DNA of 64,000 bases, from contig JAYWIR010000040.1 of assembly GCA_036172245.1 (NCBI GenBank), positions 248,001-312,000 of the forward strand, in the 5' to 3' direction. Position numbers and translations under genes: made by a program. The notes beneath the pieces were generated by a model, which saw only the letters and a list, made by a program, of their open reading frames with translations, was not told the DNA's origin and searched no databases. This DNA comes from Raillietiella orientalis (taxonomy: Eukaryota). Below are positions 5,295-60,777 of this stretch, piece after piece. Numbering within the stretch: the first letter of the stretch is position 1; each line of letters starts with the position of its first letter.

Positions 5295-5320
5295 AATAAA
5301 CGCCCCGGCGTGTCCGGGTG
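5295..5320 (+). terminator. Representative 3'-terminal signal: AATAAA + CGCCCCGG-N5-CCGGGTG hairpin (14 copies in the window)
   Basis: Follows every non-B ORF2 stop + U-rich UTR and precedes an abrupt switch to another element; function is inferred. Confidence 0.7.
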
Positions 5321-5324
5321 AGAA

Positions 5325-5870
5325 ATCTCCTGCGCTTGTTCTGCAGAGATCACATGGATCTCCTGCAGCAGCGCAAGGTCGAACGATCCTAGAATGGCGG
5401 CCATGTCTCGCCTTCTGCCGGCGTCTGTCATGCCGTTCACGTTCCAAACGGCGATGCGCAGACGACGGCGTGAGGGGATTACCGGCAATACTGCCGGGAA
5501 GATGACGGTGTGGGGAAACCCGCCTCTTCCGAGGCGGGTGAAATGACCATTAGGATTTCAGCCTCCTCAGGCACCTTGGGTACCTTTCCGGCTTCAACCC
5601 CCTCCATCTCCTCCGTGTCTGTGCGTGGTGGTCTCTCGGGTGACGATTCCTGGGATTCTCACACGCTCATTGCACTCTCGCAGTCCGAAGTCATCTCCAC
5701 GCCTTCAGCCTGGAGAGGGGCTATCCGGGGTTTGCTGGACTTCCTTCCAGCCTTCCGGCGGGGTGCCGCGGAGATGGAAACTTGGTTTCCGGCCTGCGCT
5801 TCGGGGTCGGAAGTTACCGACTCCTCGGTGGAGGCTGGACGCCTCACTGCCTTTTTGCAAGTCTTGAAGG
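5325..5870 (-). mobile_element. ORF1 C-terminus / ORF2 start of a D-like element, bounded by two insertions
   Basis: KKAVRRPAS...PRRKAGRKS, then RRRLRIAVWNVNGMTDAGRRRD...EQAQEI; similar to 12067-12620. Confidence 0.85.
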
Positions 5871-7977
5871 TTTACACCCGGGTACGCCCGGGGCGTTTAT
5901 TGTTAAAACTCTACATCCAAAGTACAAGGCCCCGCTCACGGCCATATACACTGGACCTGCCAGGACGCCAAGACGCAGCACAGCGTAGCGTTCCTCAGCA
6001 GCGAAGGGGGATGGGGATAAAACAAAAAGAAAAATAAAAAATAAACAGACAAAAAGAAGTTGGAGGGCAGGGAAGGGATCACTGAACGCTGTGAGGAGGA
6101 CTCATCCGTTGAAGGAAGCCCTCGAGGTCATTCCGTATATTCCCCAGTTGGGGCCATCCGGCAGCTCTCCGCATGAAGCGTTGGGCGTATGGGATGACAT
6201 CCCTCGCGTGTGGACCCACTCCTTCGTTATTGGCGTCGCTCCATGCCGCCACGATGCCACGGACACAGCACAAGGCTGCGATGGCTGCGGATGGGTGCAG
6301 TGCGTCCTTCACGAAGAGGGGCCGAAGAACGTCTCTGGGGGTGCTGCCCGTAGGGAGCCCGAGGGTCGCCCCGAACCGTTCCCAGCGGGGTCGGATGGCA
6401 GCACAGTCCACAATAAGGTGGCAGAGCGATTCCCGCTCTCCGCATTTGACACACTCAGGATCCACAGCTCCCCTTGTCCAGTAGAAGCGGCGTGCGTTGC
6501 AGGGTAAACCCAAGTGCAGCAGTAGCAACGCCGACTCTTGCCACTTAAGGGGCAGGATCCTGGATTCCTTCAGTACCGGGGGCCACTTCAGCACATCCGT
6601 AGGGATGGCGAGCAGCTCGCCCCATCTCATCAATCCACGCGGCTGGACCCTCGGGGTCGTGGCGTCCGCCAGTTCTCCTGTGGTCCAGCCGCTTAACATC
6701 TTCTCCCTGCCTGCAATCTGGCAGGTGACTTGCCACCTCGGCTTCTGGCGATCCTGAAGCGCCCTCAGGAGGTAGGGCATCGCCTTTGCAAGGGGGGTCG
6801 TCAACGCCCACCTCCGACTTCGGGGAAATCCCAGTATTTCCCGCAGGGTGCGGATGGCGTATGGGCCGATTCGCAGGCAGTTCATATTGTTTTCACTCCT
6901 CCGGTTCTGCTTAGCCCATGTGCCAGCAGACTCCTCCAACCAGGCGGAGGAGTTGACGGGGCCACAAATCATCCAATCGTTTGTCTTCGCCAGGGTTGCT
7001 ATGCGTCCGAGCATAAGGCCGCATATTCGGATCTTCCGGCCAGGGCACAGAAGAAACGACGCGAGTCCTTCGCATCGGGACAGACGCCTGGCGAGGAGGC
7101 ATGCCGGAACGCACCAAGGGGTGCTCCACATCTTCGCTGCGATGGCAAGGGTTCGCCACCGCAGCTGGATTTCCACGCGCTCCAGCGTCAGGAGGCCAAG
7201 GCCGCCGTCCCGACGCGGAGCGCACAAGTCCTTCAGAGGGACTCGGGGCCTACCCTTGCCCCAAAGGGCTATGCGGAGGAGGTTCCTTGTCCTCTTTTTG
7301 CATTCTCTGAGGGCGGAGCAAACAAAAAGCAAGAAGCGGAGGATGGGGGCCGCAAAAGCGTTCCAAAACGCGGCCTGTTCCGGCAAGTGAAACTTCCCTT
7401 CCAAGAACGGGCCGATCGATGTCTCAACTTTTTGAAGACAGCTGGACCACGCTTCCGCAGGGGAGTGGTCACCCAACGGCACACCAAGGTACTTGAGGCA
7501 CCTCGCCGTGGGGATCCCCAGACGGACCCAGTCCTGCTGCCCTGCAAACGCTGCACCTACTGGCACCACCAACGACTTCGCCCTGTTGACCTGCAGTCCG
7601 GTCCCACGGCTGAGCAGATCGAAGAAGTCTCCGACCGCCTTCGCCGGGGTAGACATAGGTAACAGGAGAAGAAGGTCGTCGGCATAGGCTGCTACGGAGG
7701 GCGTGCCGGGACACGAGCTCGGCAAGGACGCCAAAGTCACCATGTAGGCTCTCAGAACCAACTCAAAGTAGGTGCTGAAGAGCAGGGGACTCAAGCTATC
7801 TCCCTGCCTGATGCCCCGCCGCACCGTCACGCCATACACCTTCTGACTACTGAAAAAGATGGAGATAATCGCATTCCGCCAGCAAGAGCGCAGGTAGGTA
7901 ATCAAGGAGGGTGGGAAGCCCATGCGACCCAGGAGATTCAACAAAAGCCCCTGGTCAACACAGTCGAACGCCTTGTG
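5871..7977 (-). mobile_element. Family C, 3' half (RT from KAFD to 3' terminus); uninterrupted frame 7944-6079
   Basis: RQGDSLSP, YADD, CVKC..HLIVDC; AATAAA+hairpin at 5901-5875; very similar to 10000-12066. Confidence 0.92.
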
Positions 7978-8090
7978 CGCTCTAAGGTGGACGTGTTTTT
8001 TTGGTGCTCCTCGTGCCAGGAAGTCTCCCCCAGTGCAAGCGTCGTGTGGTTCGGTGGTCGATCAGGCAGCGATGCCTGACGCGATCGACG
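7978..8090 (+). mobile_element. Family D 5' terminus (5' UTR and first ORF1 codons MPD)
   Basis: ggacgtgttttt...ggtgctcctcgtgcc...ggtggtcgatcaggcagcgatgcctgac matches the reverse complement of 23600-23700. Confidence 0.85.
7989..8000 (+). promoter_or_regulatory. Representative 5'-terminal motif GGACGTGTTTTT (candidate internal promoter; 8 copies/variants)
   Basis: Lies within ~5-12 nt of the 5' junction and upstream of the ORF1 ATG in families C-G; function is inferred. Confidence 0.5.
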
Positions 8091-8754
8091 GAGTCGATTC
8101 CGGACCTACTTCTGGACTGCGGTGTCCTACAAGGACTGTGGCGTAGGCTGGCAACAGCACTAATGCATCCCGTGGACACCTCAAGAGACTTGCTGCGACG
8201 ATTTTTCACGCCGAGCGGGCTGTCACTAAGCGCAAGGATTGCAACCATAGGTTGCATACGCGCGATAGTTTCCGTCCGCCAGGCGTTGGTAATCAACGGA
8301 CAGCACCATGAGGTCATCAGCAAAGCATCCTTCTACATGGGAGCATCCGCTAGATGGCCTCATTTGACAGAGGAGACAAAAAGGAATCTCGCCGCAATAC
8401 ACCGCCGGTTTACACACCCTCAGCAGCGGCGAACCCCGTGATCATTGCCCTACCCTCCATAAACTAATTTTGTATTTTCTTTTTACACCCGCGTCCCCAT
8501 AGGCTCCGGAACATTTGAGGTGCTCATCGTTTAAATCCCCGTGAGTACGGAGCCTAACCAAAAACCCGTTACCCTTCCCTCCAGTTTTTGATTTTTGTTT
8601 GTTTCCCCTCATTCCTCCCACGCTGCGAGCGGTTTGTTTACCAGGCCTGCGTGCCGGTAATTTTTCTATGTTCTCTGTCGTTCTGTTGGTTGGGGACATT
8701 GTCCCTGACCAGTTTATTATTATTAATAAACGCCCCGGCGTGACCGGGTGATAA
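8091..8754 (+). mobile_element. 3' terminal fragment of an A/E-like element
   Basis: LLLDCG.LQGLWRRL...IHRRFT C-terminus, U-rich UTR, AATAAA+hairpin 8725-8750. Confidence 0.85.
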
Positions 8755-11700: not shown

Positions 11701-12066
11701 GAAGGAGTGGGTCCACACGCGAGGGATGTCGTCCCATACGCCCAACGCTTCATGCGTAGAGCTGCCGGATGGCCCCAACTGGGGAATATACGGACGGACC
11801 TCGAGGGCTTCCTTCAACGGATGAACCCTCCTCACAGCGTTCAGTGATCCCTTCCCTGCCCTCCAACTTCTTTTTGTCTGTTTATTTTTTTTTATTATTT
11901 TTTTTTTTGTTTTATCCCCATCCCCCTTCGCTGCATAGGAACGCTACGCTGGGCTGCGTGTCGGCGTCCCGGCAGGTCCAGTGCATATGGCCGTGAGCGG
12001 GGCCTTGTACCGCGGATGTAGAGTTGTTTTTTAAAAATAAACGCCCCTGGCGTACCCGTGTGTAAA
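8755..12066 (+). mobile_element. Family C ORF2 from endonuclease (D)FNL to 3' terminus, frameshifted
   Basis: IDHVFLD, SDH, KAPEEDGLPAEFY, NNWRPIT, CVRC..HLIVDC; AATAAA 12036-12041 + degenerate hairpin. Confidence 0.92.
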
Positions 12067-15000: not shown

Positions 15001-16246
15001 TGGTGCGTCCCTGCACGTCTCCTACTTCAGCAAGCCACCGGCAAGACGGGACTGACGTCGTTTCTTGCACTCCCTCTCCGCGTCAACCGATGCGGACTCC
15101 AGCTACAAAGGGTGGCTGCGCTGTATCGGAAAAACCCAGGATTGCTCACCTGTCGCCCGTTTAACGGTAGTGCCTGGTTGCAGTAAACCGTTCGAACGTG
15201 GGGACAGTTCGGCATGCAACGCTCCCAACAGGAACGAAGGTTCCAGTTTGGGGGTTACAGAAGTTGCACGCTCGGCGATATCCTGGAGGATCCAAAGAAG
15301 AGAGCGTGAGCAGGTAGAACCATCCTCGCTGCTGCGCTGCCCTCCCTGATGGAAGATCTGGACAGCGATGTTGCGGCGAAGTGGGTGGTTACAGCAACAA
15401 TCTCCGGAAAGGAGAAGAAGATGGAAGAGTGGAAGACGAACCAGTTAACAGACGCTGCGACCCCGTGTACGCCTCCCAATGGACTTCTGAGCTGGGGCGC
15501 GCTGCTCGATGTTCCCATTGAACATCTGAAGTGGCCCACGGTGCTCATGAACACTTCCGCCCTCCCCTTAAAATGGCAGGAGTCGGCTCTCCTGTTGCAG
15601 CACCTGGGACTATCCTGCAACGCCCGGCGACACCACTGGACCTCGGAAGCGGTGGACCCCAATTGCGTCAGGTGTGAGGAACGGGAGTCCCTCACCCACC
15701 TGCTAGTGGATTGGGTTGCCTTTCGGCCCCTTTGGTTTCGCTTTGCCGCAGCCATCGGAATCCCCTGCGGCAACCCCAGGGATGCACTGAAAGCCCTCTT
15801 CTTTGCCGACGCCCTTCGGCCAGCGGCCTCGTTAGCAGCTTTGTCCTGCCTACGCGGGATTGTCACCACTTGGAGCAAGGCGACGGGAGGACAACGCGAC
15901 CAGGGTGCCATCCAGCCAGCCTCTTAGTTCCTGAGGAGGGCCTCCCGATGGCCCCACCTGGATCCAGGAATACAGAAGAAGCTTGCCGGCATCCTGAAAA
16001 GGATGCAACGGCCCCACATGCAACTGTGATCCCTCCCTTACCCTCCCAAGTTTTCTTTTCTTTTTTGTTTTGTTTTTTGTATTTCCCCCTTCCTCCTGCT
16101 GCCGTGTTGGACCGTACTGGTCTGCGAACCGGTGAAACGGCAGGCTCTGTGTTTCTTCGTGCGTAGCTGGAGCAATGGTCCAGCCACCGCACGTCGTTGT
16201 AAATGTTTATTTTACAATAAACGCCCCTGCGAAATCCGGGTGAAAA
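12067..16246 (+). mobile_element. Family D: ORF1 C-terminus, decayed ORF2 (12449-~16029), 3' terminus
   Basis: TAATG 12447-12451, WNVNG, GDFN, DLRKAFD, YADD, CVRC..HLLVD; many stops; AATAAA+hairpin 16216-16242. Confidence 0.92.
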
Positions 16247-23705: not shown

Positions 23706-25820
23706 CGTAAAGCTTTCGACTGCGTCGACCAGGAACACCTTTTGGAGCTCCTGGAACGCATGGGTTTCCCGGCCGTGCTCCAGTCCTACCTGCGCTCCTG
23801 CTGGCGCAAAGCGTCAATAAATATTGGTTTCAGCGGCCGGCACGTGCACGGCGTGCCAGTGCGCCGCGGTATCCGGCAGGGTGACAGCCTGAGCCCCTTG
23901 CTCTTCAGCATCTACTTCGAGTTGGTGCTGAGGGCATACAGGGTAACTCTGGCAACCCTACCGAGATCGTGTGTCGGCACGCCTGCCGTGTTGGCCTATG
24001 CAGACGATCTTCTGCTGCTGCTTCCCGGGTCCACCTAGGCGAGTGCGCTCGAGGACTTCTTCGAGTTGCTGCGCCGCGGAACGGGCCTGGAGGTGAACAG
24101 GGCGAAGTCGTCCATGGTCTTTGTGGGTTCGGCGTGGGCTGGACGGTCGGACTGGATCCGCTTGGTGATCCCCACGGGCAGGTGCTTCAAGCACCTCGGC
24201 GTACCGTTGGGGGACTTCTGCGCAGCAGAAGCCTGGTCCGACCGTCTCCAAAAGGCAGCGTTGGCGATCGGTCCGTTCCAAGAAGGCAACTTCTACTTGC
24301 AGGAACGGGCCGCGGTGTGGAACGCGTTTGCGGCTCCCCTCCTTCGCCCCCTACTTTTTGTTTGCCCCGTTCCTTATTTTATTTGGAAACGAGCAGCGGG
24401 CCTCCTGAGGACAGTCCTTTGGGGCAAAGGGAGGTCCCGTGTGAGGATCAAAGACTTGTGCGCTCCACGTAAGGACGGTGGACTTGGCGTACTTACGTTG
24501 GAGCGCATGAAACTGCAGCTTGGTTTAAGGACTCTCGCCCTCGCGGCTGAATTGTGGGACACGCCTTGGTGCGTTCCAGCACGCCTCCTGGCCCAACAAA
24601 CCTGCGGAATCGGTGGACTTTTGTCGTTTCTGTCTGCGCGCGTCTGCAGAAGAGCATACTGTGGCTCTATGCTGCGACGCATCTTCGTTGCGGTTCGGGA
24701 GAACGCCTCGATCTCCTGCCACCCAGGGAACTACTCCGCCTGGTTGCACGAGTCAGTCTCCACCTGGGAAAAGATCCACGTTCCGGCGGGCACAAGGATC
24801 ACTTGTATGAAAAGGCACGCCCGCTGGACGCTGCAGGAGATCGTGCAGTCCCACGACAAGCTTCTGTGGGCCTTGATAATCCCCCTCGCCTCAGTGCTGC
24901 CCTTCCTTGTGGATGCCAGGGACAGTAGCGAGCAGGGGAAATGGACCGTGTCCTGCACTATAGGCGGCAGGACACAATCGATAAAGGCGTGGACATCTCG
25001 GCAGCTAGCTGACGCTGCGACGCCGAGTGTCCCGCTCAACGGAATTCGACGGTGGGGCGAGCTACTCGGACTATCTCCGGAGGAGATGAAGTGGCCCCCA
25101 GCGTCCTGGAACAGTGGATCCCTCCCCCTGAAATGGCAGGATGTGGCGTTGCTTGTGGTACTCTGGGGATTACCATTCAAAGCACGCCTGCACCACACCA
25201 CCCGGGGGGCTGTGGATCCCCAGTGCGACCGCTGCGGGGAAAAAGAGACCTTCCCCCACCTTCTCATTGAGTGCAGTGCCATCCGCCCTTTATGGGATCG
25301 CCTTACGGCGATCCTGGACTTCCGCGGATGCGGCCCCAAGGACGTTTTTAGGCGCCTCTTCTGTAGTGACGCCTTGTTCCCCCCCGCTTCTGTAGCAATC
25401 CTCTGCTGCATTCGAGGGATCGTGGCGGCTTGGAACCCCACCAGGAGAAGACGTCAGCCAACTGGCAACGCCTTACGATGGACTCGCATTTTCGCGCTCA
25501 GTGTCTGCAAGTGGAGCCACTTGGGCTCTGAAAGGACTCAGCTTGTCCGGATCGTGGATAGGATCTAGAGGACCTGCCCACGCGCAACGTAATCCCTTCC
25601 CTGCCCTCCCACCCCTAAAACATTTGTTCCCCCCCCCACATTTGAACTTTTTGTTTCTTTTTGTTTGTTATTTCTCATCCCCGCGCATCGCAAGGACCTC
25701 TCCGGCATGCAGCCGGTAACCAGCAAGCTGTTTTGGAGTGGTGAACCTTCGGGTTTGCCATGCGACATTTCTATGTAATTTTATTTCTAAGAAATAAATG
25801 CCCCGGAACATCCGGGTGTG
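23706..25820 (+). mobile_element. Family J, 3' half (RT from KAFD to 3' terminus)
   Basis: KAFDCVDQ, RQGDSLSP, YADD, CDRC..HLLIEC; AATAAA+hairpin 25793-25818. Confidence 0.9.
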
Positions 25821-28800
25821 AATCGCGACGGCGCGCGTCACCATGGATGACCGGAGGCTCATGCCTTCGCAGATCCTCCTCAATGACGTCGTCGTCTATC
25901 TCCGGTTTGCCGGGCAAACCCCCGCTTGCGGCAACTGCGGGAAGGAGGGCCACCGTCCGCGGAAGTGCCCAACACGCAGTTGCCGATACTGTAAGCTGCT
26001 CGGCCACTCGATTAACGAGTGCGCCGAGCTAAAACGAAAGAGGAGGACGAGAAACCTCCTTACAACATCGCGGTCCGTGCCGACTCCATCCGCCCCGTCG
26101 TCGGGGAACTAATCCGGCGCGAACGAGGTTCCGTAGGGGACAAGCACAAAGTCCGATTGCGGGGGCGTGTCTGGGAGCAATGCTCCTCAAAAGCCCTCGC
26201 AAAAGGACAAAAAGCTTCTCCAAGCTGCTAAAAAGGAGCCCCGAGCAAAGTAGTCTGGAAAAAACCTCGGGTAGACTGCAACACCGCCGCTTCCGTTTGC
26301 TCTCGCTCGGGAACGAAATAGCGGTGGCACGCCCGGGAATTCCACCGGAGCGTCGCAAAAGCGGTCGCGCGCACCTTTGCCCGCGACAGGCAAGACGGCC
26401 TAGGCGGGCTGAACGCCAGAAAAGGCTGAAAAGCCTCGCGCGACCCCCGAGAATCCCGCCACTCTGCCCGCACCTTCCGGTAAGGAGGTGCAGAAGGCAG
26501 ACGTGGCCAAGGAGACACTGGCCTCCGTCGCCGTATCCGAGGCCTTGGAAAGGATGCGAAGGACCCTGGAAGCCCTCGCGCCCAACCGGGGCAAACAGGA
26601 AGGCGGCGAGGATGGCTGGACCTTCGTCGGGGGGAAGAAGGAGCGCAAACCGCGCGATCCTTCCCACTTCCCGATCAAAAAGGTAGGCGCGGTGAAGAGG
26701 CAGCCCCGCGCGCCAAAGAAGGCGCAAGGAAAAGCCTCTACTGCCGCCGCGCGCGCCGTCGCAAACACCCGCGGCGAGAGGAGAGCTGCCGAAGCCGTCA
26801 CCCCGAAAGGGGGATCTGCGACGAAGGCACCCTCTAAGAGTGCTGTACCAGTTCCGGGCTGCCAGCAAAAAAAGAGGCAGGCGAAACGCCCGCCGCGCGC
26901 GCGGAATTCGGACTCCGAGGTGGAGCACGAGGGCAGCGCTAAGGCTCGCCAAGCCCCGGTCAAGGCCAGGGCTGCGCGCAAGCCAAAACTTGCCAGGCAA
27001 GAGCCTGATGCCGGGAACGGTTTCCGATGCTCCTCGGAGCCCGAGGCAATGGTCCTCGACTCCACCGAGCCGGCCGCGAGCGGCGCGGCGGGGACAGGAA
27101 GCGCTTGTGCTTCCTCATCCGCCGTGCTCCCGGCTGATGCCTCGCCGGACGGGGCGAGGAACGCACCTCCATGTCCGTAGCAGCAATGCGCGGTCTCGCT
27201 TCTTCCCGTCGCGTCCGAGTGGCCTGCTGGAACGTCAACGGGCTGCAAAACAACGCGAAGAGGCGATTGGTTGCCAACGTCTTGCGCGACTTCGATCTGG
27301 CCCTGCTGCAGGAGATTCATGCACTCTCCGAGCAGCAAGCGGCCGATCTGCAAGCTCGCGCAGGCGGGACGCTCCATTGGAAGTCAGGCTCCCAGAATAC
27401 CTGCGGAGTCGCATTCCTTTTTCGGGGCAGGGTGGCGGGAGCGGTGCGGAACGTTTGTTTCGACGAGGGAGTTCGTGTGGGCCAACTTGTTCTCAAGTGG
27501 TCCGAATCGATCAACCTTGTCGTCACGAACGTGTACGCGCCGAGCGGCTCCGCGCGTCACACCGAGAAACTGGAGTTTTTCGAGAGACTGCGCGACCGCT
27601 GGCTCAGCAACTCCGGCCCCGACGTGGCTCACCTCGTAGCCGGGGACTTCAACGTCCACGCGTTATCGGAGGAGTCTCACCGTCGCCGGGAGAAACGGCT
27701 GGTGAACGAGGTGTGCGCGTCGGTGCACGCCTCGAATTTGCTGGCCGACGATCCCGGAATGCGTGCTTTGCCGGACCATGTGTTCCTCGACGATCACCTG
27801 TATTGTCGAGTGGGTCGAAGAGGTCCCGTGCCGTCCGAACTTTCCGACCACTACAGGCTGGAGTTTGAGCTAGTCCCGCCTGGCAAGGGCCCTCCGACGC
27901 ACGTCTGGAGGTTGCCGGCCGACTGGTTGAGAAATCCGGTGGCTGCGGAGCACCTCCGCCAGCATCTCCGTTCCTTTGCCGTTCGAGAGCTCGTGGACTG
28001 GGACGATCTGAAAAGATCGGTTTGCGAGTTCTGCAGCCGGTTCCCCTTGCGCCTGCTTCCCCGTGGCTTCGGGGAAGGCGTGGCCAACAGCAGAGAGTTT
28101 CTGCAGGCCCGCCAATTCTTTCGATGCCCGGACGTCCGGTACCTTGCGGAGTACAAGGCCAAGGCCGAGCGCCAGGTCTGGCAGTCAGGAGCAGCTTGTC
28201 AGCTCGACGACCAGGGCTTGGAGTGCTCGGGCGCGGCCGAAGTTCGCCGCCTCCTAAAGCGCTATTACTCCTTGTTGTACGCTAGGGAGCCGACGGAACG
28301 CAGTCTCTCGGAGCTGCTTCTGCCGGCGGATTCCCCGGCGGTCGACGAGGAGGAACGCGCCACTCTTGACTTGCCCTTCACGGCGGAAGAAGTGTCTTCC
28401 GCCATAGCGGGCCTCAAGAAGCGCAAGGCGCCAGGTGAGGATGGTCTGCCTGCGGAGTTCTTCCAGTGCTTCGCGGCGGAACTCATCCCCCTGGTGCTGA
28501 GGCTTTCTGCGCTGATGCGAGAGACGGGCAATGTCCCGGCCTCGTTTCGCTCAGCAAGGGTGCGTCTGTTGCCGAAAGGCGGAGACATGCGCCATTTAAA
28601 CAACTGGCGTCCCATCACCTTGGTGAATGCGGACGTCAAGTTGTTCTCCAGGCTGTGGGTCGTGCGCCTGGGCAGGATCGCTGGATCCGTGGTAAGTCCG
28701 GAGCAGTCTTACGCTGTTCCCGGGCGGTCCATGGAGGCGAACCTGTTCTTCGCGCGCACGTGGCTCGAGCTGCAACGCTGCGTGGCGCACGACAGCCAGG

Positions 28801-30973
28801 CAACCGCGTCTGTGGCTGCCGAGGCTAGGCGTCGCTGCATTCGGCCTGGGGAAGCGCCGGGTGCCTTGGCGGTCGCGGTCGATCTCCGCAAGGCGTTCGA
28901 TTGCGTAAATCAGGATCTCCTGCTGGAGCTCCTGGAACGCCTCGGTCTCCCGGTGCACCTCGTGACCTATTTGCGCGCTCGCTGGCGCCACGCGCTCATT
29001 TCCATCTCTTTTAGCGGCTGCCACGTGTACGGCGTGCCGGTGCGGCAAGGCATCAGGCAGGGCGACAGTTTAAGCCCGTTGCTCTTCAGAATCTTCTTTG
29101 AGCTGGTGCTGAGGGCGTACAGGCTGACGCTGGCCAACCTGCCGAGCCTTTGTCCAGGAACGCCGTTCGTGGCGGCCAATGCTGACGACCTGCTTCTCCT
29201 CTTACCCATGACCACCCGGGCGTCCAGTCTCGAGAATTTCTTCGAGCTGATTCGCCGTAGAGCATGCATGAGCGTAAACAGGAGCAAGAGGGTGGTCGTA
29301 CCCATTGGTGCGGCGTGAGAGGGGTAGTCCGACTGGATCCGCCTGGGGATCCCGACCGCTTCGTCCACCCAATATCTGGGCGTTCCGCTGTGGAACAACA
29401 GCCTAGTGGAAGTGTGGTCGGACTGCCTTCGGAAGGCTACGAGTGCTCTGAGCCCGTTCGAGCATGGAAGGTTCCTACTGTCGGAACGGGCCGCGATATG
29501 GAACACCTCCGTTGCCCCCTCTTGCGCCCCCTGTTTTTTGTTTGCCCGACCCCCTACTCGGCGAAGCTCCAGGCGCACAGACTGTTGAGGAACGCTCTCT
29601 GGGGTCCTGCGCGGTCCAGGATCCTCCTGAAAGACTTAGGCTCCGCGTCGGAATGCTGGCTTAGGCATCCTGACGCTGGAGAGAATCGAGCTGCAGGTGC
29701 AGCTTCGGATGTTGGCCTTGTGCGCCAACCTTTGGTCCACTCCGTGGTACGCTCCTGCGGGCTTGCTCCTACGGCGCTGCACCGGAAGCGACGGACTTCT
29801 GTCGCTGCGTCCGCACACGGAGCTCCCCACGACAAGTTTCGATTTCCCCTTGAAACCCCTATACCTGCTCCTGGCAGCCCAGGAATGGATCTCCTGCCTC
29901 CCAGCGAACTTTCAAGCCTGGCGGCAGGAACCGTTGTATGGCTGGGCAAAGCGCCAGCATGTTTCCCTCCTGCAACTCCGTTGCGTTAACCTCTCCCCGT
30001 ACTGCACGGTGGAAGAGGTCTGCAGCAGCCAGGAGAAGTGGACCGGCCTGGCACTCACCCCCTTCGCCGACGCACTGTCAGCCCTCAGGGCAAGATATGA
30101 CAGCTGCGAACCGGCGAGATGGGAGGTCGCCTGCACCATTGCAGGAACAACACGACCTATTGGCGGCTGGAGGACTTGCGAGCTGGCAGACGCCGCCACG
30201 CCTCGCCACATCTCGAAGGGACTCCTTCGGTGGAGCGAACACTTGAGTGTGCCCCCCGAAGAACTTGTGGTCCCTGCCTCCTGTTTGAACACTTCTGTGT
30301 TCCCCCTTTCGTGTAAGCAGGACGTCATCATGCTGGTGCATTGGGGTTTTCACTCCAACCAGCGAACGAACCGTGTTTCCGGGGGAGATGTCTCCCCAAA
30401 CTGTAAGCGGTGCGGGGAAGTGGAAACGCTCCTGCACCTGCTTTTGGACTGCGGTGCCCTCCAAGGACTTTGGCGGAGGCTGGCCTCAGCTCTTCGGCTC
30501 CAGGGGGACGCCGCGAGGGACTTGATGCGCCGCTTCTTTACGCCAGGCGGCCTGTCTTTGGGTGCTATCGTTGCAACCGTGTGTTGCACCCGCGCCATCG
30601 ACAAGGCCCACCGAGAGCTGGAGAAGCTGGCCATCGTTCGTCAGCCCACCGGATTAGCCAGCGCAAGCATGTCGTCGGCTGCCGAGTGGGCCCATGTTCC
30701 ACAGGACGTAAGGAGAGAGATCGCCGCATCCATCGCCTGTTTTGAAAGGAAGGAACGGACTCACCAAAGACCCCTGTCCCCTGCCCTCCATATTTTTTAT
30801 TTTTATTTTTTATAGTAGTGTATTTGTGGTCCCCTCCCTCCCGTTCCGCACTTTCAGCATACCGACCTGCGTGTCGGATATCCCATCCCCTTCGTTTCTT
30901 TTTTTCCCCTTTGTCCGGGAACTCTGTTCCCGGATAGTTTGTAATAGATGCCCCGGCGCACCCGGGTGACAAA
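25821..30973 (+). mobile_element. Family K (A-like): partial ORF1, ORF2 27186-~30815, 3' terminus
   Basis: CGNCGKEGHRPRKC knuckle; 715-aa EN-RT frame 27171-29318 with NADD instead of YADD; AATAGA+hairpin 30943-30968. Confidence 0.9.
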
Positions 30974-33005
30974 CAAACAGGCGACCTCCCGCGATCGTTT
31001 CGATCTCCTGGACGTCTGCCGCGGTGATCACGTGGATCTCCTGCAACAGGGTCAGGTCGAACTCCCGCAGGGTGTCGGCTGTATCTCGCCTGTTACCGTC
31101 GTCGCGCAGCCCGTTGACATTCCAACAGGCCGCGCGAATCCGACGGCGACTGGCGAGCCCAGGTGTTACTCCTGGGAAGATGGCGATGAGGCGTCCGCCA
31201 CCTGCTTGGGCAAGACGCTAGGTGGAGGAGGAGGGTCAGGTGCTGAAGGCACCTCGTCCCCCTCCTCCATAGGTAACGGCGCGTCGAGCGGATCACCCAC
31301 AGGTGGTGTCGCCTACCTGTTCGCCCTCCTCCACGTGGGCGGGCTGTTCAGGCTCGGCGACTGCAGGAAGGACTTCGCCCCCCTGCTCACCCTCCTTCAT
31401 AAAGGTGGCTGGCTCGACGGCTTCCGAGCGTGGGAGTTCCCCCTCTGGGATTCCCACGCTAGCGCTACCTTCCTGCTTCTCCTCCTCGCTGGTGGAAGGG
31501 AGGCGCCTCCTGGGTTTCTGGGACTTGCGTCCCGACTTCCTAAAGGGTGCCTCCGAGGAGGAGGATGTTCTTCCGGCCCCCAGGTCCAACTCACCTGTGG
31601 GGGTCTTTTTCGCGGGAGCCGGCCTTCGTACGGCCTTTCGCGAGGGGTTCTCACGCTCGGTCAGCGTGGCCGCGAGCTCCTACGCCGCCTGCGCAAACGC
31701 GGCGTCCTAGGCTTCGACCGTCGCTATTTCACGCGGCTCACCCTCTGTGTAAACAGAGGGTTCGTCGTCGCAAACCTCGAGCGCGGCGGAAACGGCGAGG
31801 GGAGCCTTGTCGCACCGGGTGGTAGCCTCGGGAACGACCATTCGTTCCAGTGCCACCGTGCACTCGCGCAGAGTTTTTGAGCGCGGACCGGGTTTTTTCG
31901 ATTTACCCGCCGGCCTATGCTCTTTCTTCTCAGCGGATGGTCTTTTCTTAGCCTTTCTGGCGGCAACAAGCTGCCAGCCCTTTTCTCCTTCCATTACTTC
32001 GGAAGATTTATCCTCCGGCTTTTGCGCTGGAAGTTGAGGTTCTGGCAGCTTCTGCCGGACACTTTCCACTTTAGGTCTTGCGACCTTCAAGGCACGTTTC
32101 CCCTGCGCTTTTTTGGCGGCAGGGGGAACCGGAGTGGGGCGCTTGGGGCACAGACGCCTAACTTGGCCCTTCTCCCCGCACAGGTGGCACTGGATGTTAG
32201 GACACCTCCTACGGAGGTGTCCCACGGCATCACAGTACCCGCAGTATCGTGGTTTCCACACGTACGAAAGGTCCACGCTCTCTTGCGCGACCTTCAGTTT
32301 GTGGGGAAGTCCGCAATTCTTTTTGACGGTGACCCGCGCTGCAGCCTGACCACCAAAAAGGCTACCGTAGCCGTTAAAAATGGTGGGTTTGGGCCACAGT
32401 GCGTGCACCTCCCCGAACTTTCGTAGTTCTTCTCCGACCGCAGAGCGAGTCATGCGGCTGCTAATGCCGGTAATGTGGACCACCACGGAGCGGTCCATTG
32501 ATATCGGCAGGATCTCGCGGCCGTCCACGTTCAGCGGTGCATGAATCAGGCGGTAAGCCAAGGTGACGTCTTTGCACACCACCTCGACCCGCTGCCCGCC
32601 GCTGAGGACAGAGAGGCCGTCAAGATCCTTTTCTAATATATTCGCCTCCTGCAGCGCCCTGCTAAATGCGCGTGCAGTCCTGCCGTCAAACAAGTTGCCT
32701 ACCTGGTAGACAAGCGATGGCTTGTACCCGGAGGCCTTGTATGCGGCCATCTCCGCCATGGCTTCCGCGCTGGGCGGCCACCATAACACTCCATGTCCTC
32801 GGCGTGGCCGGGGATGATTCCGGGGCGGCAGCCCCTGCTCCAGTAGGCTGTGGGGGCAAACTAGCCTCCCCACGCCTACCTCCATCGCGGTGTCCTCCGA
32901 CATCGTGGCCATTGGACACCGACGATGTACATAAAACACTACACACAAGAAAAAGCGCTTTCCTACTACTCTTTGAGGAGTGAAGGAAAAACACGTCCTC
33001 TAACT
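30974..33005 (-). mobile_element. Family C, second 5' part (5' UTR, ORF1, endonuclease up to GGRL)
   Basis: Close paralog of 20240-22270; starts AGTTAGAGGACGTGTTTTT. Confidence 0.92.
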
Positions 33006-37300: not shown

Positions 37301-37373
37301 GCGGCCGTAAGTGGGGCCTCGTACTACGTTTTTGTAAAGTTTCAATAAACGCCCCGAGCGTACCCTGATCGAA
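34353..37373 (+). mobile_element. Family H (C-like) ORF2 from EN-RT linker to 3' terminus, decayed
   Basis: KAPGEDGLPAEFF, HKAFD, YADD, CTRC..HLTVDC; AATAAA 37344-37349 + degenerate hairpin. Confidence 0.9.
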
Positions 37374-37472
37374 ACACCAAATTCCCGGGGCGGGCGGTGC
37401 ACGGGGAACTCCTCGCACAACTCCCGCACCGAGACTTTCATGCGGTCCCAGTCATGGAGATTCCGGAGCGTC
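37374..37472 (-). mobile_element. ~100-bp remnant of family G ORF2 linker (continuation of 43007-45611)
   Basis: TLRNLHDWDRMKVSVRELCEEFPVHR..FG; shares the target duplication with 43007. Confidence 0.8.
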
Positions 37473-37553
37473 GAGCGGACCTGTCTTTTCGTTGCTCCTG
37501 AGTTCCATTTCCGTTGGTGCTTGTGCGTGGTGTGGGTGGAGGATTAGGCAGAA

Positions 37554-42794: not shown

Positions 42795-43006
42795 TCCCTT
42801 CCCGCTCCCTCCCTGATTTTTGTTTATTTTTTGTTTTCTTTTTGTTTCGTTCCCCCTCCCCTCTGCTGCCGAGGTCGACCGCGCAGGTCTGCGCACCGGT
42901 AGCCCGGCAGGCTATATCTTTCCAGGGCGTGGCTGGACTACTGGCCCAGTCACAGATTGTATAAGTTTATTCGTTAGAATAAACGTCCCGGCGCACCCGG
43001 GTTTCA

Positions 43007-45611
43007 ATGGAGATTCCGGAGCATGACGCCTCCCAGTACTTGGCTGAGATGTTCCGCCGCACCTGAGATGCGCGTTTAGTCCCCGGGGAGACGCCATGCC
43101 CTGGATGGTGGTCCTTTGTCGCAAGGCATAACCTCGAATATCAACCGGAAGTGGTCCGATAGCGTCGACGGAAGTTTCCCTCGTCTGCCGACCAGTGGGC
43201 ACAGGTCGGCGTCAAGGAAGACGTGGTCTACTCTTTGGACCATTCCCAGTAGGTCCCCCAACAAGTTGCGCGTGCGCATAGCAGCGCACAGCTCATTGGC
43301 TGCGTCTTTTTGCCCGCAAGGCACACCTGAGAGCAGGCGGATGTTGAAATCCCCACCGATCAGATGCACTTTGCATACGTTTGTATCCGCCAGCCAGTCG
43401 CGTTTAAGGTTTGCGAGGAACCGGGAACGTTCCCCGTACCCGCATCCTCCGCTCGGAGCGTACACATTGGTCACGACAAGGTCGATCGAGTCGGGCCACC
43501 TAAGGATGAGCTGGCCAACCCGACTGTGGTTGTCGATGCGTACGTCCTTGACGAAGGCGGCGACTGCTGGCTTCATAAAAAAGGCGACGCCACAGGTGTT
43601 GCGAGCGCCGCATTGCCAAAACAGACGACCCCCTGCGATCCTCTAGATCTCCTGGGCGTTCTCCGCGGTGATCACGTGGATCTCCTGCAGGAGCGCCAGG
43701 TCGAAGTCGCGCAGGGTGTCGGCCGTATCCCGCCTGTTGCCGTCGTCGCGCAGCCCGTTGACGTTCCAGCAGGCTACGCGGATCCTACGGCGACAGGCGA
43801 GCCCAGGTGTTAATCCTGGGTAAGTGGCAATGGGACTCCCGCCACATTGTCGGACTGGACGCTAGGAGAAGGGGGTGCGTCGCGCACCGCTTCTCCCTCC
43901 TCCACGGGGGCCGAGTCTTCGTCAGGGCGTGCAGAGGAAGGGGGGTTTCACCCACCTGTACTTCCTCCTCCATGGGAGTCGCCAGCTGCAAGGTGTCGGG
44001 GAATGAGATATTCCCACCCTCGCCTCCCACGCTGCCAACTTCCCCCTCGGGGGCCGATTCATCCTCCTCCTTATTGATCCGGATGCGTTTCCTGGGATTC
44101 TGCGACTTGCTTCCCGTCTTCTTTGGTGGCGCCTCCGTTGAGGAGGAAGCACTTCCGGCATCCGGTTCGGCCTCACCTGCATCCGGAGCCTTCCTCGCGG
44201 GCGGCCTTCGTAAGCCTTTCCGGGAGTTCTTTTCACGGCCTTGCAGTTCAGCCGTGAGTTCTTCCACCGCCTGCTGGAAGGCGGCCTCCTCGATCGCGTC
44301 GAGCGCAGCGCGCGGTTCCCCCTGTTTCCCCAGAGGGTTCGCCATCGACCGTCGCGGCTTCGGCGGACGCGAGGGGTGGATTGCTCCCCCGGCGGCGGCA
44401 CCGGGTGCCTCCACACGTTCTAATTTTACCGAACACGCGCGGAGCTTTTCGCGGCACGGTTTTTCGCTCTGCGTTTTTGTTTTCACCGAGTTTCGTTCGG
44501 GACTCCCGGGTTTTCTTCGTGGCTGTACCGTCTGCCAGCCTTCGCCGTCACCAGCATCGTCGGGAGTGTTCTCAACCGACGTTTGCTGTGAGGGCTTAGG
44601 GACTGGCATCTGGGTGTTTACAGCCTGTTTCTGTTTATGCGTCTCTCCCGTGCGTTTCCCCTTTGCCTTTTTTGCAGCGGATGGGGGCGGGATTTCTCTT
44701 CTTGGGCACACCTTACGGATGTGGCCCTTATTTCCACATAAGTGGCATTGGATGTTAGGGCACCGCTTTTTTAGATGTAGCATCGCAATGGCCACAATAC
44801 TTGGGCTTACCCACGTACCAAACATCGACTTTTTCTTCGCCGATATTCAGTTTGTGGGGAAGCCAACCATTCTCTGGTAGGGTGACGCGGGCTGCGGCCA
44901 TCCCACTGAATAGCCTTCCGTAAGTTCGGAAGACATTGGATTTGGCCCAATACGCGTGCACACTACTATGCTTCGACAACTCCTCATGGACGCTGGTTTT
45001 GTCCATTCGGAGTGATACACCTGTGAGGTGGACCACGACGGAGCGGTCCTCCGTCACAGGGAAGATCCTGCGGCCGTCCACCGTAATAGGGGTGTTCAGC
45101 AGTCGCTGCACCAGACTTGCCTCTTTGCATGTCAGCTCAACTCGCTGGCCCCCACTAAGGACGGATAGGCCTAAAAGGTCTTCCTCCCTCACGTTAAACC
45201 TTTGCAGCTCCATTTCGAAGGAGCGTGCAATTTTTTCATCAAACACACTGCCTACCTTATAGATCAGAGACATCTTGTAGCCGCTGTCCTTGTAGGCAGT
45301 CTGCTCCGCTACTGCATCCGGAGATGGTGCAGCAACGACGTCACTCCAACTCCTCGCCAATGGCGAAGAGGGTCGCGAAGGGGCGGTTGCCCCCGATTCC
45401 GATGGGGCAGGTGCCCCGGATTCCGTGAGGGCGGATGCCCCCACTTTCATTGGTGGAGGAGAGCATGTCGCTTCTCCTCCTCCAACTTCCATCGCGGTGT
45501 CCTCAGGCATTTCTGCCATGGGACACCGGTGCTCCCACACACCAGACAACCAACGAAAAGCTTCCCACTAACCAGTCCGTGGAGCGATGCCAAACCACGT
45601 CCGCTCCCTAG
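43007..45611 (-). mobile_element. Family G (C-related), 5' part: 5' UTR, frameshifted ORF1, endonuclease
   Basis: ggacgtggttt at ~45602-45592; MAEMPEDTAMEV; CHLCGNKGHIRKVC; CWNVNG, GDFN, SDH. Confidence 0.9.
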
Positions 45612-46233
45612 AACGACACCGGGAAGAGTAAATCCTGCGTGTGCCAGGTGTGGGGAGCGGGAGTCGCTCCCCCACCACTTATTTGATTGCCCTGCCGTCC
45701 GGATTTTTTGGGGTGTCTTAGAACGGCCCTTGGGATACCGGATAGTAGCAATCCCAGAGGCGTGTACAGTCTTCTCTTCGTGCGGGACGCCCTCAGTCCA
45801 GCCACAGCCCTGGCAGCACTTTGCTGCATTCGTGGTATCGTGGAGGCCTGGAGTGATTCCGAAGATGAAGATTGCATCGTGAGAGACGTCATCGAGTATA
45901 ATGTTCGCTTCCTGCAGAGAGCTGCCCGATGGCCCTATCTGGGAAGAATGAAAATGGAACTCCAAGGCATCTTGCAAAGAATGGGCCCTCCCAGCAGTTG
46001 TCTGTGATCCCTTCCCGGCCCTCCAAACTCCTTTTGTATTTTTTTTTTCTTGTTTTATTTTATTTTTGTTTTCTCCCCCATCCCCTTCCACTGCCGAGGA
46101 GAGACACAGGGGGCTGCGTCTCGGTGTCCCGGCAGCTCCGGTTTTGCGTGGCCGTCAGTGGGGTCTTGTACCACGTTCTTGAATGACGGAAGAAATGTTT
46201 TTTAATAAACGTCCCGGCGTACCCGGGTGGCAT
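45612..46233 (+). mobile_element. 3' terminal fragment, H-like 3' UTR
   Basis: CARC..HHLFDC, U-rich UTR, AATAAA+hairpin 46204-46229. Confidence 0.88.
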
Positions 46234-46828: not shown

Positions 46829-47243
46829 TGCAGCCAGTCGCTGTAATAGCAGCTCTCTGCTGCGTACTCGGTATTGTGGCAGCTTGGAATGGATCCGACG
46901 AACAGAAGGAATGCCATAAAGTATGCAGCTCGATTTCTGCGAATAGCATCCCGATGGCCCCACCTGGGAAATCTGCACAAGGACCTCGTCGGCATCCTGC
47001 AAAGGATGGAAGCTCCACAAAACGGAGCGTGATCCCTTCCCGGCCCTCCCAATGACCAGTGTTTCTACATTTTATTTTTTTTATTTTTGTTTTTTTCCCT
47101 CACCCCATCCGTTGACGTGGAGTGTTATGTCGGTCTGTGCACTGACCACCAGACAGCTCCAAAGAACTATTGGCCGCAGCGGGGCCTTGTACCGCAAATA
47201 CTGTTAGTTTTTAAATAAACGCCCCGGCTTGACCGGGTGAAAA
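46829..47243 (+). mobile_element. Short, heavily 5'-truncated insertion (ORF2 end + 3' terminus)
   Basis: LCCVLGIVAAW..WPHLG; AATAAA+hairpin 47214-47239. Confidence 0.85.
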
Positions 47244-47369
47244 CATCGAACTGTACACTGCGCACTGCCTTTGCGACGGCTGGCTCCAGCAGGAAGGCCA
47301 CTCCGCGGGAGTGGTCTCCACCGGATCGCCAAAGTAGCCTTCCCCTGTGAGCCTCTCCATCTCCTGCGC
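47244..47369 (-). mobile_element. Endonuclease fragment (AQE..ERL to VRSVQFD)
   Basis: GRLLWRSGG..GVAFLL..VRSVQFD; upstream continuation of 46234-46828. Confidence 0.8.
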
Positions 47370-49158
47370 TGGGAGGGGCAGTCCGACTGGATCCGCCTGG
47401 GGATCCCCACGGGCAGGTACCTAAGGTACCTTGGCGTGCTGTTGGGCGACTTCTGCATCTCAGAAGCGTGGTCGGACTGCCTTCGGAAGGCAGAGCGTGC
47501 ACTTGGTTCGTTCTCAGGAGGCGAGTTCGTCTTGCCGGAACGGGCCAGCATCTGGAACACCTTCGTTGCCCCCCTCCTCCGCCCCCTGTTTTTTGTTTGT
47601 CCATCCCCCCAGGAAGTCAAAGTCTGGGCGCAGCGCCTTCTACGCAAAACGTTGTGGGACGCTGCAAGATCCCGCGTAAGACTTAAATACTTGGTGGCGC
47701 CGCGTCAGGATGCAGGCTTGGGCATCCTGGACTTAAAAAGCATCGAGCTGCAGCTGCAGTTTCGAATGCTGCGGCTCTGTGCCAAGCTGTGGTGTACGCC
47801 ATGGTGCTTACCAGCACGACTTATACTAAGGTGCTGCACGGGAAGCGAGGGACTGTTTTCGTTGCTACCCCACTTCCGGCACACCAGAATAGGGTTTGGC
47901 TTCCCGCTGAGGCAGCTGTCCTCACTGCTGGAAGCCCAATGTTGGATCTCCTGCCACCCCATGAACATTAATGCATAACGGCAGGAATCTTTTTCATCGT
48001 GGGCAGCTTCCGCAGGAACGCGCCCGGAAGATCTTCGACGCCTGCTATTTCTCCTCAGTCATCAAATGGACGAAGTCATGCATGACAAGAAGTTGTCGGA
48101 TCGTCTGGCCGCCACACCACTCGCCGCAGCGCTGTCTGCCCTCAGGGCAAGCAACGACGGTTGCCTACCGGCGGAATGGGAGTTCTCCTGCAAAATAGCG
48201 GGAGTCAGTAAGCTCCTCGGCAGCTGGACGACAAAGGAGCTGGTGCAAGCCGCCACACCTCGGAATCGGACGAAGGGCCTGCTTCGGTGGAGCGAACATT
48301 TAAGTGTACTCCCCGAAGAGATAGTGATCCCCCCGTTTGTTTGGACAGCTCCGTGTTCCCCCTAAAGTGGAAACAAAAATGTGCTGCTCTTTTTACATTG
48401 TGCATTACACTGTAATAGGCAGCGAAGCATCGTTTCCGGGGGAGCTGCTCCGCCAAACTGTTTGAGGTGCGGGGAGATCGAGTCTTTTCCGCACCTCTTG
48501 ATGGACTGCGGTGACCTCCGTGAACTGTGGCGTAGGCTGATTCCAGCCATCCTGCCGCAGGGAGGCACTGCCATTGATGTGCTGCGGCGCTTCTTCAGGA
48601 GGAATGGATTTTCGGTAGGCGCGATTGTCGCAACCATGTGTTGCATTCTCGCCATCGTGAAGGCCCGCTACGCACTGGAGTTGTCAGCGCAGCGAAGGGA
48701 GGCTCACCGGTTTGCAGCAGAATCCATGAAAAACGCTGCTAGGTGGTCTCATCTTCGTGACAAGGTCAAAGAGGACATCGCCGGCATCCACCGCCGGTTT
48801 ACCGACTTTTGGGAACGGCTTAATCCGGTGACCACTACGTCCTGAAGCCCACCCATACCCCTACCCGCTCGCTCTGCTAAAATACCGGTGCCATTACTAT
48901 TATTCCGGAGAGAACAAGAGCGATCCAAAAGCCCCTTGTCCCCGCGTCCCCCGTTGATTTCTTTTTCTTTTGTTTTTGTTTGTTTGTTTTCCCAGTTCCC
49001 ACAAACCGTTCTGTGTAATTCTGACCTGCGTGCTAGCAGTATTCTCCTGATACTTGTGCCGTCGTCGGCTGGGGGCATAGTACCCAACTGGTTTATTTTA
49101 TATATTTATTTCTGTTGTATTTATATGAAATAAACGCCCCGGCGTGATCGGGTGAGAA
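47370..49158 (+). mobile_element. Family A, 5'-truncated copy with 3' terminus
   Basis: Close paralog of 3535-5324; AATAAA+hairpin 49129-49154. Confidence 0.92.
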
Positions 49159-50459: not shown

Positions 50460-51415
50460 ATGTGGGCTTTGATAACCCCCCTTGCCCCAGTGCTGCCCTT
50501 TCTCATCAGTGCCAGGGACACTAGGGAGCTGGGGAAATGGACCGTGTCCTGCACCGTAAACGGAAGGACACAACCGATAAAGGCGTGAACATCTCGGCAG
50601 CTAGCGGACGCTGCGACGCCGAGTGTCCCGCCCAAAGGAATTCGACGCTGGGGCGAGCTACTCGGACTATCTCCGGAGGAGATGAAGTGGCCCCCAGCGT
50701 CCTGGAACAGTGGATCTCTCCCCCTTAAATGGCAGGAGGTGGCGTTGCTTGTAATACATTGGGGTTTACCCTGTAAAGCACGCCTGTATCACAACACCCG
50801 GGGGGCTGTGGATCCCCAGTGAGACAGGTGCGGGAAAAAGATACCTTCCCCTACCTTCTCATTGAGTGCAGTGCCATCCGCCCTTCATGGGATCGCCTTA
50901 GGGCGATCCTGGACTTGCGCGGATGCGGCCCCAAGGACGTTTTCAGGCGCCTCTTCTGTAGTGACGCCTTGTTCCCCCCCGCTTCTGTAGCAATCCTCTG
51001 CTGCATTCGAGGGATCGTGGCGGCTTGGAACGCCACCAGAAGAAGACGTCAGCCAACTGGCAACGCCTTACGACGGACTAGCCTATTCGTGCGAGCTGTA
51101 TGCAAGTGGCGCCACTTAGGCGCACATAGGACTCAGCTTGTCCGGATCCTGAATAGGATCTAGAAAACCTATCCGGGCGCATAGTGATCCTTTCCATGCC
51201 CTCCCATCCCTAAAACATTTATCCCCTCCCGTATTTAAACTTTTTGTTTGTTTTTTTTTTTCTGTCCCAACCCCCGCGCATCGGAAGGACCTCTCCGGCA
51301 TAGCGCCGGGAACCAGCAAGCTGTTTTGGCGTGGTGCAGCTTCGGGTTCTCCACTCGAAAAATTAATGTATTTTTTATTTTTTGAAATAAATGCCCCGGC
51401 ATATCCGGGTGAAAA
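50460..51415 (+). mobile_element. Family J, 5'-truncated copy with 3' terminus
   Basis: Paralog of 24865-25820; AATAAA+hairpin 51386-51411. Confidence 0.9.
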
Positions 51416-52094
51416 CGCAAACGCCGCGGAACCGCCGCAGGAAAGCTGGGACAAAGACGCGAGCAGCAGCGACGACAAAAGTTTCGAGAAGGCGACGGAG
51501 GAACTCGCGGCCACCTTAATGCAGCCGCTTAAGGCTGCAAAGAAGGCTGTGAGACGTCCGGTGGAAGCCCAAGGACCGGAAACTCCAGTGTCCGAGGCGG
51601 AAACCGGAAATGCTCCCACCGTCGCCCTCCCGAAGAGGAAGGCGGGCCGGAAGTCCCGCAACCCTATGCGCGTCGCTCCCCCTCAGGCTGAGGAGGAGGA
51701 AATGCGCTCGTGTAGCGAGGAGCCGATGTCCGCGAGGTCGCGGGATTCCTACGTGGAAACCGCCCGGTCCGATCTTCTGATCGACCTCAGTCCGGCTGCC
51801 GACCTTCCGGTCGTTGCCGAAACGCCGTCCATGCAGGTGGACATCGACCAGCCGCCTCCCGAACAGGATGCGGCTACACAATCGCCACCACCATCATTAG
51901 CATGATGCGTGGAATCAACTCTTGCCGGCAACTGCGTATAGCCTGTTGGAATGTCAAGGGGCTGCGTAGCGAAAGCAAGAGGCGTAGCGTGGCCGACACC
52001 CTGCGACCTTTCGACCTGCCACTTCTCCAAGAGGTTCACGCTCTCAGGGGAGAGGACGTCCAGAAAATCGAGAGGCTCACAGGGGGGAGGCAAA
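51416..52094 (+). mobile_element. Family I: ORF1 C-terminus and ORF2 start
   Basis: Inverted paralog of 49159-49810; TGATG 51903-51907. Confidence 0.88.
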
Positions 52095-52704
52095 TTGTGC
52101 GAGGTGTGGAGCCCTAATTGTGCGAGTTGTGGAGAACGGTATTCCCCTCCTTTTGCATTTTGTGGCTCTTCGGCACCCTTGGAACCGTTTTGCCGCGTCA
52201 ATTCGTATCCCCTGTGGCAACCCCAGAGACGGAGTTAGATCTCTCTTCTTTTTCGACGCCCTTCGGCCTTCGACCTCGTTTGCAGCCCTGGACTGCTTTC
52301 GCGGGATAGTCGCTGCATGAAGCAAGACAACGGGAGAACCACGCGATAAAGTTGCCGTCCAGTGCGCAGCCAAATTTAGGGAGACGGCGACAGGATGGAC
52401 CCATCTGAATTCAACAATCCAAAAACAGCTTGCCGGCATCCTGCAAAGGATGAAACGGCCCCACAGCAGACTCTGATCCCTTCCCGAGCTCCCCAGATCT
52501 TTTTTTTATATATTTCTCATTTTTCGTTTTATGTTTTTGTTTTGTCCTTGCCCCCTCTGCTGTCGTGGTGGACCGTACCGGAATACGAACCGGTGACCCG
52601 GCAGGCTTAATTTTGTGTACCAGTGCGTGGCCGGACCACCAGGTCAGCCACCAACGCTTGTTTTATTCGAAAGAATAAACGCCCCGGCGCAACCGGGTGA
52701 AAAA
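52095..52704 (+). mobile_element. 3' terminal fragment with F/D-like 3' UTR
   Basis: PNCASCGER..; AATAAA+hairpin 52674-52699. Confidence 0.85.
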
Positions 52705-60764: not shown

Positions 60765-60777
60765 GTCTTCCCCTTTT

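Follow-up and report, generated by a model that had tools for sequence, protein, structure and literature searches.

The window examined here, 64,000 nt of contig JAYWIR010000040.1 (assembly GCA_036172245.1, positions 248,001 to 312,000, forward strand) from Raillietiella orientalis, is a pile of nested non-LTR (long terminal repeat) retrotransposons whose copies end in a short common 3' terminus, AATAAA followed by a GC-rich inverted repeat. The open reading frames (ORFs) of the window carry the Pfam domains Exo_endo_phos (apurinic/apyrimidinic, or APE, endonuclease), RVT_1, zf-RVT and zf-CCHC. This is the domain content of the L1 clade, in which ORF2 combines APE, reverse transcriptase (RT) and a C-terminal cysteine (zf-RVT) region and ORF1 has a zinc knuckle; target-site duplications and 5'-truncated copies, also characteristic of that clade, were found as well, copies ranging from about 50 to 7,300 bp. 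The representative ORF2, a frameshifted member of family D (27138..30812, + strand; the family labels A, B, C, D and T were assigned in this analysis), contains the APE endonuclease, the RT and the C-terminal cysteine region according to domain search and comparison with structural relatives. The nearest solved protein to ORF2 is human L1 ORF2p (141 bits, against 61 bits for R2). Only two relatives exceed 60% identity, both metagenome proteins (P0001 and P0045), and the remainder lie at about 22-39%. The label L1/Tx1 used below derives from the domains and the nearest solved relative, and covers Tx1 together with the other L1 branches.

A first-pass annotation had listed 14 coordinates at which the terminus AATAAA-YGYCCCGG-N5-CCGGGTG occurs with an invariant stem. 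At each of the 14 sites an L1/Tx1-like LINE (long interspersed element) has its 3' end, with the motif or a decayed form of it, while the exact string is present at only seven of them (5295, 8725, 25793, 46204, 47214, 51386 and 52674). Among the others, 30943 reads AATAGA, 42978 ends in CCGGGTT and 49129 has one stem change; a 6-nt spacing, characteristic of two families as a whole, is found at 5901, 12036, 16216 and 37344, with stem substitutions also in the last three. For single copies the word "invariant" was too strong, as the full 5-bp stem and 5-nt loop are intact at 9/14 sites and stem substitutions at four. With up to three mismatches allowed, 11 motif matches were found in the window, against a shuffle mean of 0.02.

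The family A terminus (5295..5324, +) consists of AATAAA, the CCCGG-N5-CCGGG hairpin and the tail GAGAA, and its target, from 5325, is the endonuclease gene of a sibling element in antisense. A family-A-like terminus (49129..49158, +), in which the one stem change leaves a G-U pair possible, has the same tail, and its target (from 49159) is homologous to that of 5295 in another host family. Family C ends at 5871..5901 (-), where the 6-nt spacing makes a 6-bp stem with a 4-nt loop possible, and at 12036..12066 (+), which has two stem substitutions; both carry the tail GTAAA and share one target site, a sibling ORF1 in sense. The terminus at 8725..8754 (+, tail GATAA) stands in a sibling ORF2 in sense, and structure prediction pairs its AAUAAAC with a U-rich strand upstream; that at 16216..16246 (+, 6-nt spacing, one stem substitution, tail GAAAA) stands in a sibling RT region in antisense. 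The family D terminus (30943..30976, +), with AATAGA in this copy, has the tail GACAA plus four extra bases, and its target from 30977 is again a sibling endonuclease gene in antisense. A full-length family B element (+) is bounded by a 16-bp target-site duplication, with the 5' copy at 37454..37469 and the 3' copy at 43007-43022; its terminus (42978..43006, +) ends in CCGGGT-TTCA, with the duplication directly after. The remaining sites comprise two AATAAAT-type termini (25793..25822, +, tail GTGAA; 51386..51415, +, tail GAAAA), a decayed terminus (37344..37374, +, tail CGAAA), and termini at 46204..46232 (+, 4-nt tail GGCA), 52674..52704 (+, tail GAAAAA) and 47214..47243 (+), the last with a tail of 5-7 nt whose boundary is unsure, the empty host being just 82% alike. 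In addition, the window contains a terminus of the distant T lineage (58756..58792, +), absent from the earlier annotation, in which AATAAA is followed by a different, bulged hairpin, AAA and a 13-bp target from 58793.

The motif is abundant far beyond the window. The host's actin and histone genes have 3' ends of metazoan type. In the host genome (210 Mb, 491 contigs), the exact motif occurs 1,683 times against 0 for the reversed control, the pattern without AATAAA 2,261 times against 1, and the pattern with six stem positions freed at least 2,820 times against 4. Within 646 kb of fetched DNA, a sample picked mostly for LINE richness, the terminus follows 103/126 ORF2 C-termini (main motif 84, T motif 19); at least five of the remaining 23 have a worn or different terminus, and the others have none in range. 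The 165 distinct ends collected include 156 in families with ORF2 upstream and 7 that match 3' untranslated regions (UTRs) belonging to such families. Two are unassigned, namely L044 (G000:C40:237744), which is seemingly fused to RT-coding sequence, and L182 (G000:C40:332059). The motif pattern had 0 matches in viral contigs, and 11 pattern matches in metagenomes were judged unrelated, since none lies beside an L1-like ORF and none has a U-rich upstream tract. Rfam gave 0 matches in the window and the NCBIfam search nothing further. No published description of the terminus was found, in a search that lacked most subscription papers and Repbase reports and is thus weak evidence of absence.

The elements stop at a fixed point just after the hairpin. 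As had been proposed from the window, they have no poly(A) tail: among A-runs that begin no more than 8 nt from the hairpin, the longest measures 1-7 nt (mode 3) in 165/165 ends, so the elements lack the poly(A) tract with which relaxed, mammalian-type L1 primes on a T-rich nick. An upstream direct repeat was found for 25 ends, and after removal of three tandem copies there are 22 non-tandem target-site duplications of 12-21 bp (mode 14), 18 of which begin 4-5 nt after CCGGGT. None of the ends carries a tandem array of the L2 type, and the duplication starts 4-6 nt after the hairpin. For 73/165 ends, a homologous site without the insertion and of at least 88% similarity was available; divergence from it begins at an offset of exactly 5 in 44, at 4 or 6 in 7 and elsewhere in 22, where 26 of the 44 are family A ends and the 22 other offsets can reflect host divergence. 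The element end lies 23-25 nt after AAUAAA, which is inside the usual range of cleavage sites. In two copies of related families (G000:C1:8032198 and L021/L022), the 5' and 3' copies of the duplication differ by one mismatch at its second base; these mismatches, together with the four extra junction bases at 30943, may be traces of slippage at initiation.

The short tail had been described as identical within families A and C and as a possible primer on the target. The element-derived tail measures 4-6 nt (mostly 5) after CCGGGT and has the form G-N-N-A-(A). The bases beyond it that are constant within a family are target DNA; in a full-length family A copy, the 5' duplication opens with the same five bases. 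Priming fared worse. Comparison with empty sites shows a 5-nt tail unlike the bases in whose place it stands, and C or T is the first target base at 9/14 window sites, where an A-ending tail cannot, therefore, match the end of the primer. Among the 51 ends with offsets 4-6, the target opens with A in 39, mostly of families A and D. Priming through pairing between the visible tail and the target is thus unsupported, is not needed and was rejected.

Across families the terminus is strongly conserved. Among 55 family representatives, AATAAA and the stem columns are 89-100% constant and 4/5 loop columns vary, as had been proposed, and the terminus is retained across two deep clades. A 3'-terminal sequence conserved across diverged families is one mark of stringent LINEs, and it is found here both in these representatives and in the 103/126 ORF2 ends. 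The stem is present in the predicted structure of 6/8 main-clade window ends; an extra pair Y9-G26 around a bulged U was considered and found unsupported (41/51 paired, no double change). The T lineage, at about 22-32% protein identity to the other families, has AATAAA, an outer stem, a bulge on the 3' side, an inner 3-bp stem, a 5-nt loop and 3-5 A's, also without poly(A). Its alignment of 23 rows comprises 16/20 fetched relatives and 7/30 T copies; of the four relatives left out, one lacked the motif, one was degraded and two were out of register by an indel, and the exact ends of the relatives were placed where copies diverge, not from duplications. In this alignment 83% of cells pair, a value reached by 0/500 shuffles and compared with at most 59% in slid controls, and compensatory changes occur in 3/8 pairs, including two family-level switches (A-U/U-A and G-C/C-G). 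This gives a hairpin better structural support than the main clade does. CCCGG-N5-CCGGG could instead be a protein-bound DNA palindrome, such as a terminator, silencer or antisense promoter, as the main clade is invariant in sequence and not merely in pairing; this is very improbable, since two families have the 6-nt spacing, pairing persists in the sister lineage although the sequence is a different one and one side carries a bulge, and the fixed end would be left unexplained.

The motif ends the elements at a fixed point, no poly(A) follows, duplications of 12-21 bp flank them, and the same layout recurs in the sister lineage, where the hairpin covaries. The first-pass annotation had suggested a shared element for RT recognition or 3' processing. 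This is still the best reading, on account of the fixed end and the T-lineage structure, though it is an interpretation, and the main-clade stem contributes no double changes. In the form we favour, with somewhat better than even confidence, the cleavage site would be set by AAUAAA, and ORF2p would bind the hairpin and begin its copy a fixed distance away, leaving out the tail in the manner of "stringent" LINEs. In ordinary RNA polymerase II fashion, AAUAAA would bring about cleavage and polyadenylation at an A 23-25 nt downstream, right behind the hairpin. ORF2p would then bind the hairpin, and target-primed reverse transcription would start a fixed 5-6 nt past the stem, at the border between element and poly(A), so that no more than one or two A's would be copied and no pairing with the target would be needed. 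This reading draws its support from the fixed end, the 103/126 tagged ORF2 ends, the constant stem, the T covariation, the C/T targets and the plain AATAAA without a hairpin in host actin (AATAAA in 1/2 actin ends), and zebrafish L2 ORF2p offers a precedent (PMC4176376).

Several observations weigh against it. Compensatory change in the main-clade stem is absent (0/6 pairs with both sides changed, 51 distinct rows), so the main clade demonstrates conservation of sequence, with folding unproven, and its covariation score was reached by 500/500 shuffles. The mean pair probability of the stem is at least 0.5 in just 30/53 families. The T covariation amounts to about two family-level events and is inflated by related rows. 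One loop is common to different families, unlike the family-specific loops of ZfL2 elements, and no short interspersed element (SINE) with the same tail was seen among the 165 ends (two of them unassigned), which are a small part of the at least 2,820 relaxed matches. Moreover, AAUAAAY is predicted to be paired (probability at least 0.5) in 27/44 families, and such pairing would work against its role as a poly(A) signal.

This second helix involves a U-rich tract in the upstream 30 nt, with which AAUAAAY pairs above shuffles (0.47 vs 0.26; 50 families, Wilcoxon p ~1e-4). Upstream of AATAAAC the partner is mostly GTTT, and upstream of AATAAAT mostly ATTT (18/3 vs 2/7, p 0.002 at 85% clusters). 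HIV-1 has been reported to hide AAUAAA in a hairpin (PMC2645353, available portion). Such pairing would fit an RNA that is not polyadenylated, in which AAUAAAY forms one strand of an A-U helix upstream of the GC hairpin, and this hairpin marks or protects a mature, tail-less 3' end, as in histone mRNA, to be copied by the RT from its last base. We regard this as unlikely: the association drops to p 0.10 at 75% clusters, 28/59 families have another partner or none and two more have neither C nor T, 6/11 U-type rows of the tree fall in one clade, and the helix is missing in many families, the T2 and T3 upstream regions being purine-rich, yet with AATAAA kept. The host histone genes carry the canonical stem-loop (6-bp stem, U-rich tetraloop, no AAUAAA) at 9/9 ends, unlike the LINE terminus, and a histone-type end was therefore rejected. 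The upstream helix may be a modulator and is not a universal part of the terminus, or the U-rich tract might just enhance polyadenylation from upstream. For several families the predictions also contain an additional, family-specific hairpin, rich in GC, 10-60 nt 5' of AATAAA (e.g., 30912-30938, 8688-8712 and 42930-42953).

The hairpin might also serve host 3' processing only, by spacing or strengthening a poly(A) site lacking a fixed element downstream, with the RT recognising another feature and the tail lost otherwise, for example through deadenylated templates. The fixed spacing between AAUAAA and hairpin would suit such a role, as would the downstream DNA that differs at each insertion, and folding of HTLV-1 RNA is described in the available part of PMC2645353 as bringing AAUAAA and the cleavage site together. 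Little credence is given to this explanation, which leaves both the base-exact stem and the A-runs of at most 7 nt in all ends unaccounted for; the motif, moreover, was seen only at LINE ends, 163/165 being tied to ORF2 or to such 3' UTRs.

Together with the fixed end, the elements have marked target preferences. In family A, 28/30 copies lie at one site of a sibling endonuclease gene in antisense (25 directly, 3 tandem); in family D, 14/30 copies lie at a site 8 codons from that of family A; and family T uses one 13-mer target in 24/28 readable copies, all three counts referring to best-matching copies and not to a random draw. A single target in >20% of flanks, the mark of target-specific Tx1 elements in the available text of PMC4494074, is thus found in families A, D and T. 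L1 coding sequence is present in 11 flanks of the first 30 exact matches on contig C1, and flanks of the 165 ends contain L1 ORFs in 110 cases, 86 of them antisense. The targets include fixed coding sites of sibling families, mostly antisense (window 5325, 30977, 49159 and 58793; loci L057-L146), and this targeting is arguably more unusual than the hairpin. Family T, which targets family A ORF1 in antisense, also forms head-to-tail tandem copies separated by its 13-bp target (window 54208-64000, L045).

An exact end and a site preference could both arise if read-through transcripts carrying the target sequence of the donor annealed to the nicked target. All 30 family A copies, two off-target sites included, continue with the same five target bases, and the main-clade endonuclease keeps read-through open, as it lacks ~15 residues where relatives carry a DNA-probing beta-hairpin (3/3 window families vs 3 outside proteins; 27195-27890, 39233-39910 and 1430-2110). 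We hold this to be quite improbable. Family A copies in two host types (14 C-type, 11 B-type), which differ right after those five bases, are intermixed on the tree (permutation p 0.86, on a star-like and weak tree) and are thus separate insertions, and family D occupies one site in hosts with different first bases. Hidden read-through pairing is, in itself, a slight possibility. Co-duplication was rejected as the cause of the identical flanks of family A, as the copies are mixed on the tree and only one identical pair was found among 30.

Stringent L1-clade lineages have been described in plants and algae, namely monocot 1a (LINE1-1_ZM with ZmSINE2/3) and Chlamydomonas L1-1_CR (PMC3472496, PMC3747384). 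Like the present elements they belong to the L1 clade, and the accessible text of PMC3472496 reports that their last 45-80 nt are conserved while the rest diverges and that the monocot tail is a hairpin. As far as these sources are available, however, their stem varies with compensation around a conserved loop, there are partner SINEs, and L1-1_CR has poly(A) at its end, whereas here the stem is base-invariant, the loop is variable, AATAAA abuts the hairpin, no poly(A) and no partner SINE were seen, and the host is an animal. L1s without a tail are a minority, with 9/233 plant and 5/15 algal families in the accessible part of PMC3472496. The L2 LINEs ZfL2-1, ZfL2-2 and UnaL2 likewise have a 3' stem-loop near the end, a stem common to related families and no poly(A), and zebrafish L2 ORF2p reads the stem generally and the loop specifically (PMC4176376, available portion). 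They differ in belonging to the L2 clade and in having short terminal tandem repeats and family-specific loops (same portion of PMC4176376); the present elements lack a terminal repeat and share one loop among several families, and the role proposed for their hairpin is drawn from sequence.

The elements also resemble the Tx1-clade elements Tx1L, Keno, Kibi, Koshi and Tx1-Mar, for which the available text of PMC4494074 gives APE and RT domains, a zinc-knuckle ORF1 and a strong target preference, the target possibly being another transposon. They differ in that their targets are sibling LINE coding sites; SINEUs moved by Tx1-Mar carry poly(A), according to the same text. Nested piles of L1-clade elements are also known from Zepp/ZeppL of green algae (10.1101/2025.03.28.645958, in part), but Zepp ends in poly(A) (PMC3472496, Table 1, as available) and here many families cross-target each other. 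A structured end is thus a strategy known from other LINEs and rare among L1 relatives, and the fact that structured 3' tails and tail-less LINEs are already well known limits the surprise. The 3' terminus without a tail is real and extends across the clade, an animal L1/Tx1 lineage so far unsampled, and it is probably a new form of stringent 3'-end recognition with a putative function.

The shift of L1 from a structured 3' end to poly(A) recognition is an open question, for which the stringent L1 examples in the literature, as far as it was available, come from plants and algae. A large radiation of animal L1/Tx1 elements that carry a 30-nt tag, stop at an exact point and have family-specific targets offers a small, direct test case and, if the reading of ORF2p binding the hairpin is true, a case from nature in which an L1-type enzyme inserts without a tail, with precise ends and with a preference for certain sites. 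Dozens of mutually gene-breaking families have the same stem and often the same loop, which might make it a common handle by which any family could mobilise others in trans, broken ones included. It is possible, though we advance it only tentatively, that this lineage kept or regained fully stringent template choice, with the hairpin acting both as such a handle and as a ruler that sets the start at +5 and dispenses with poly(A), terminal repeat and primer pairing, and with the helix that masks AAUAAA perhaps switching between processing and copying.

Some further observations concern the sequences around the elements. The regions G000:C1:8140001-8170000 and 8190001-8200000 apparently share an inverted duplication, as the same ends recur on opposite strands. 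Many partial 18S rRNA copies are scattered over contigs, and the copy that was read (L036) has neither an A-tail nor the LINE terminus at its 3' side. As well, 5/6 full-length-sized copies (window 37470-37495; C1, C96, C129) begin with a motif close to GAC(G/C)TGYTY, at most ~15 nt from the 5' duplication, which is possibly an internal core promoter.

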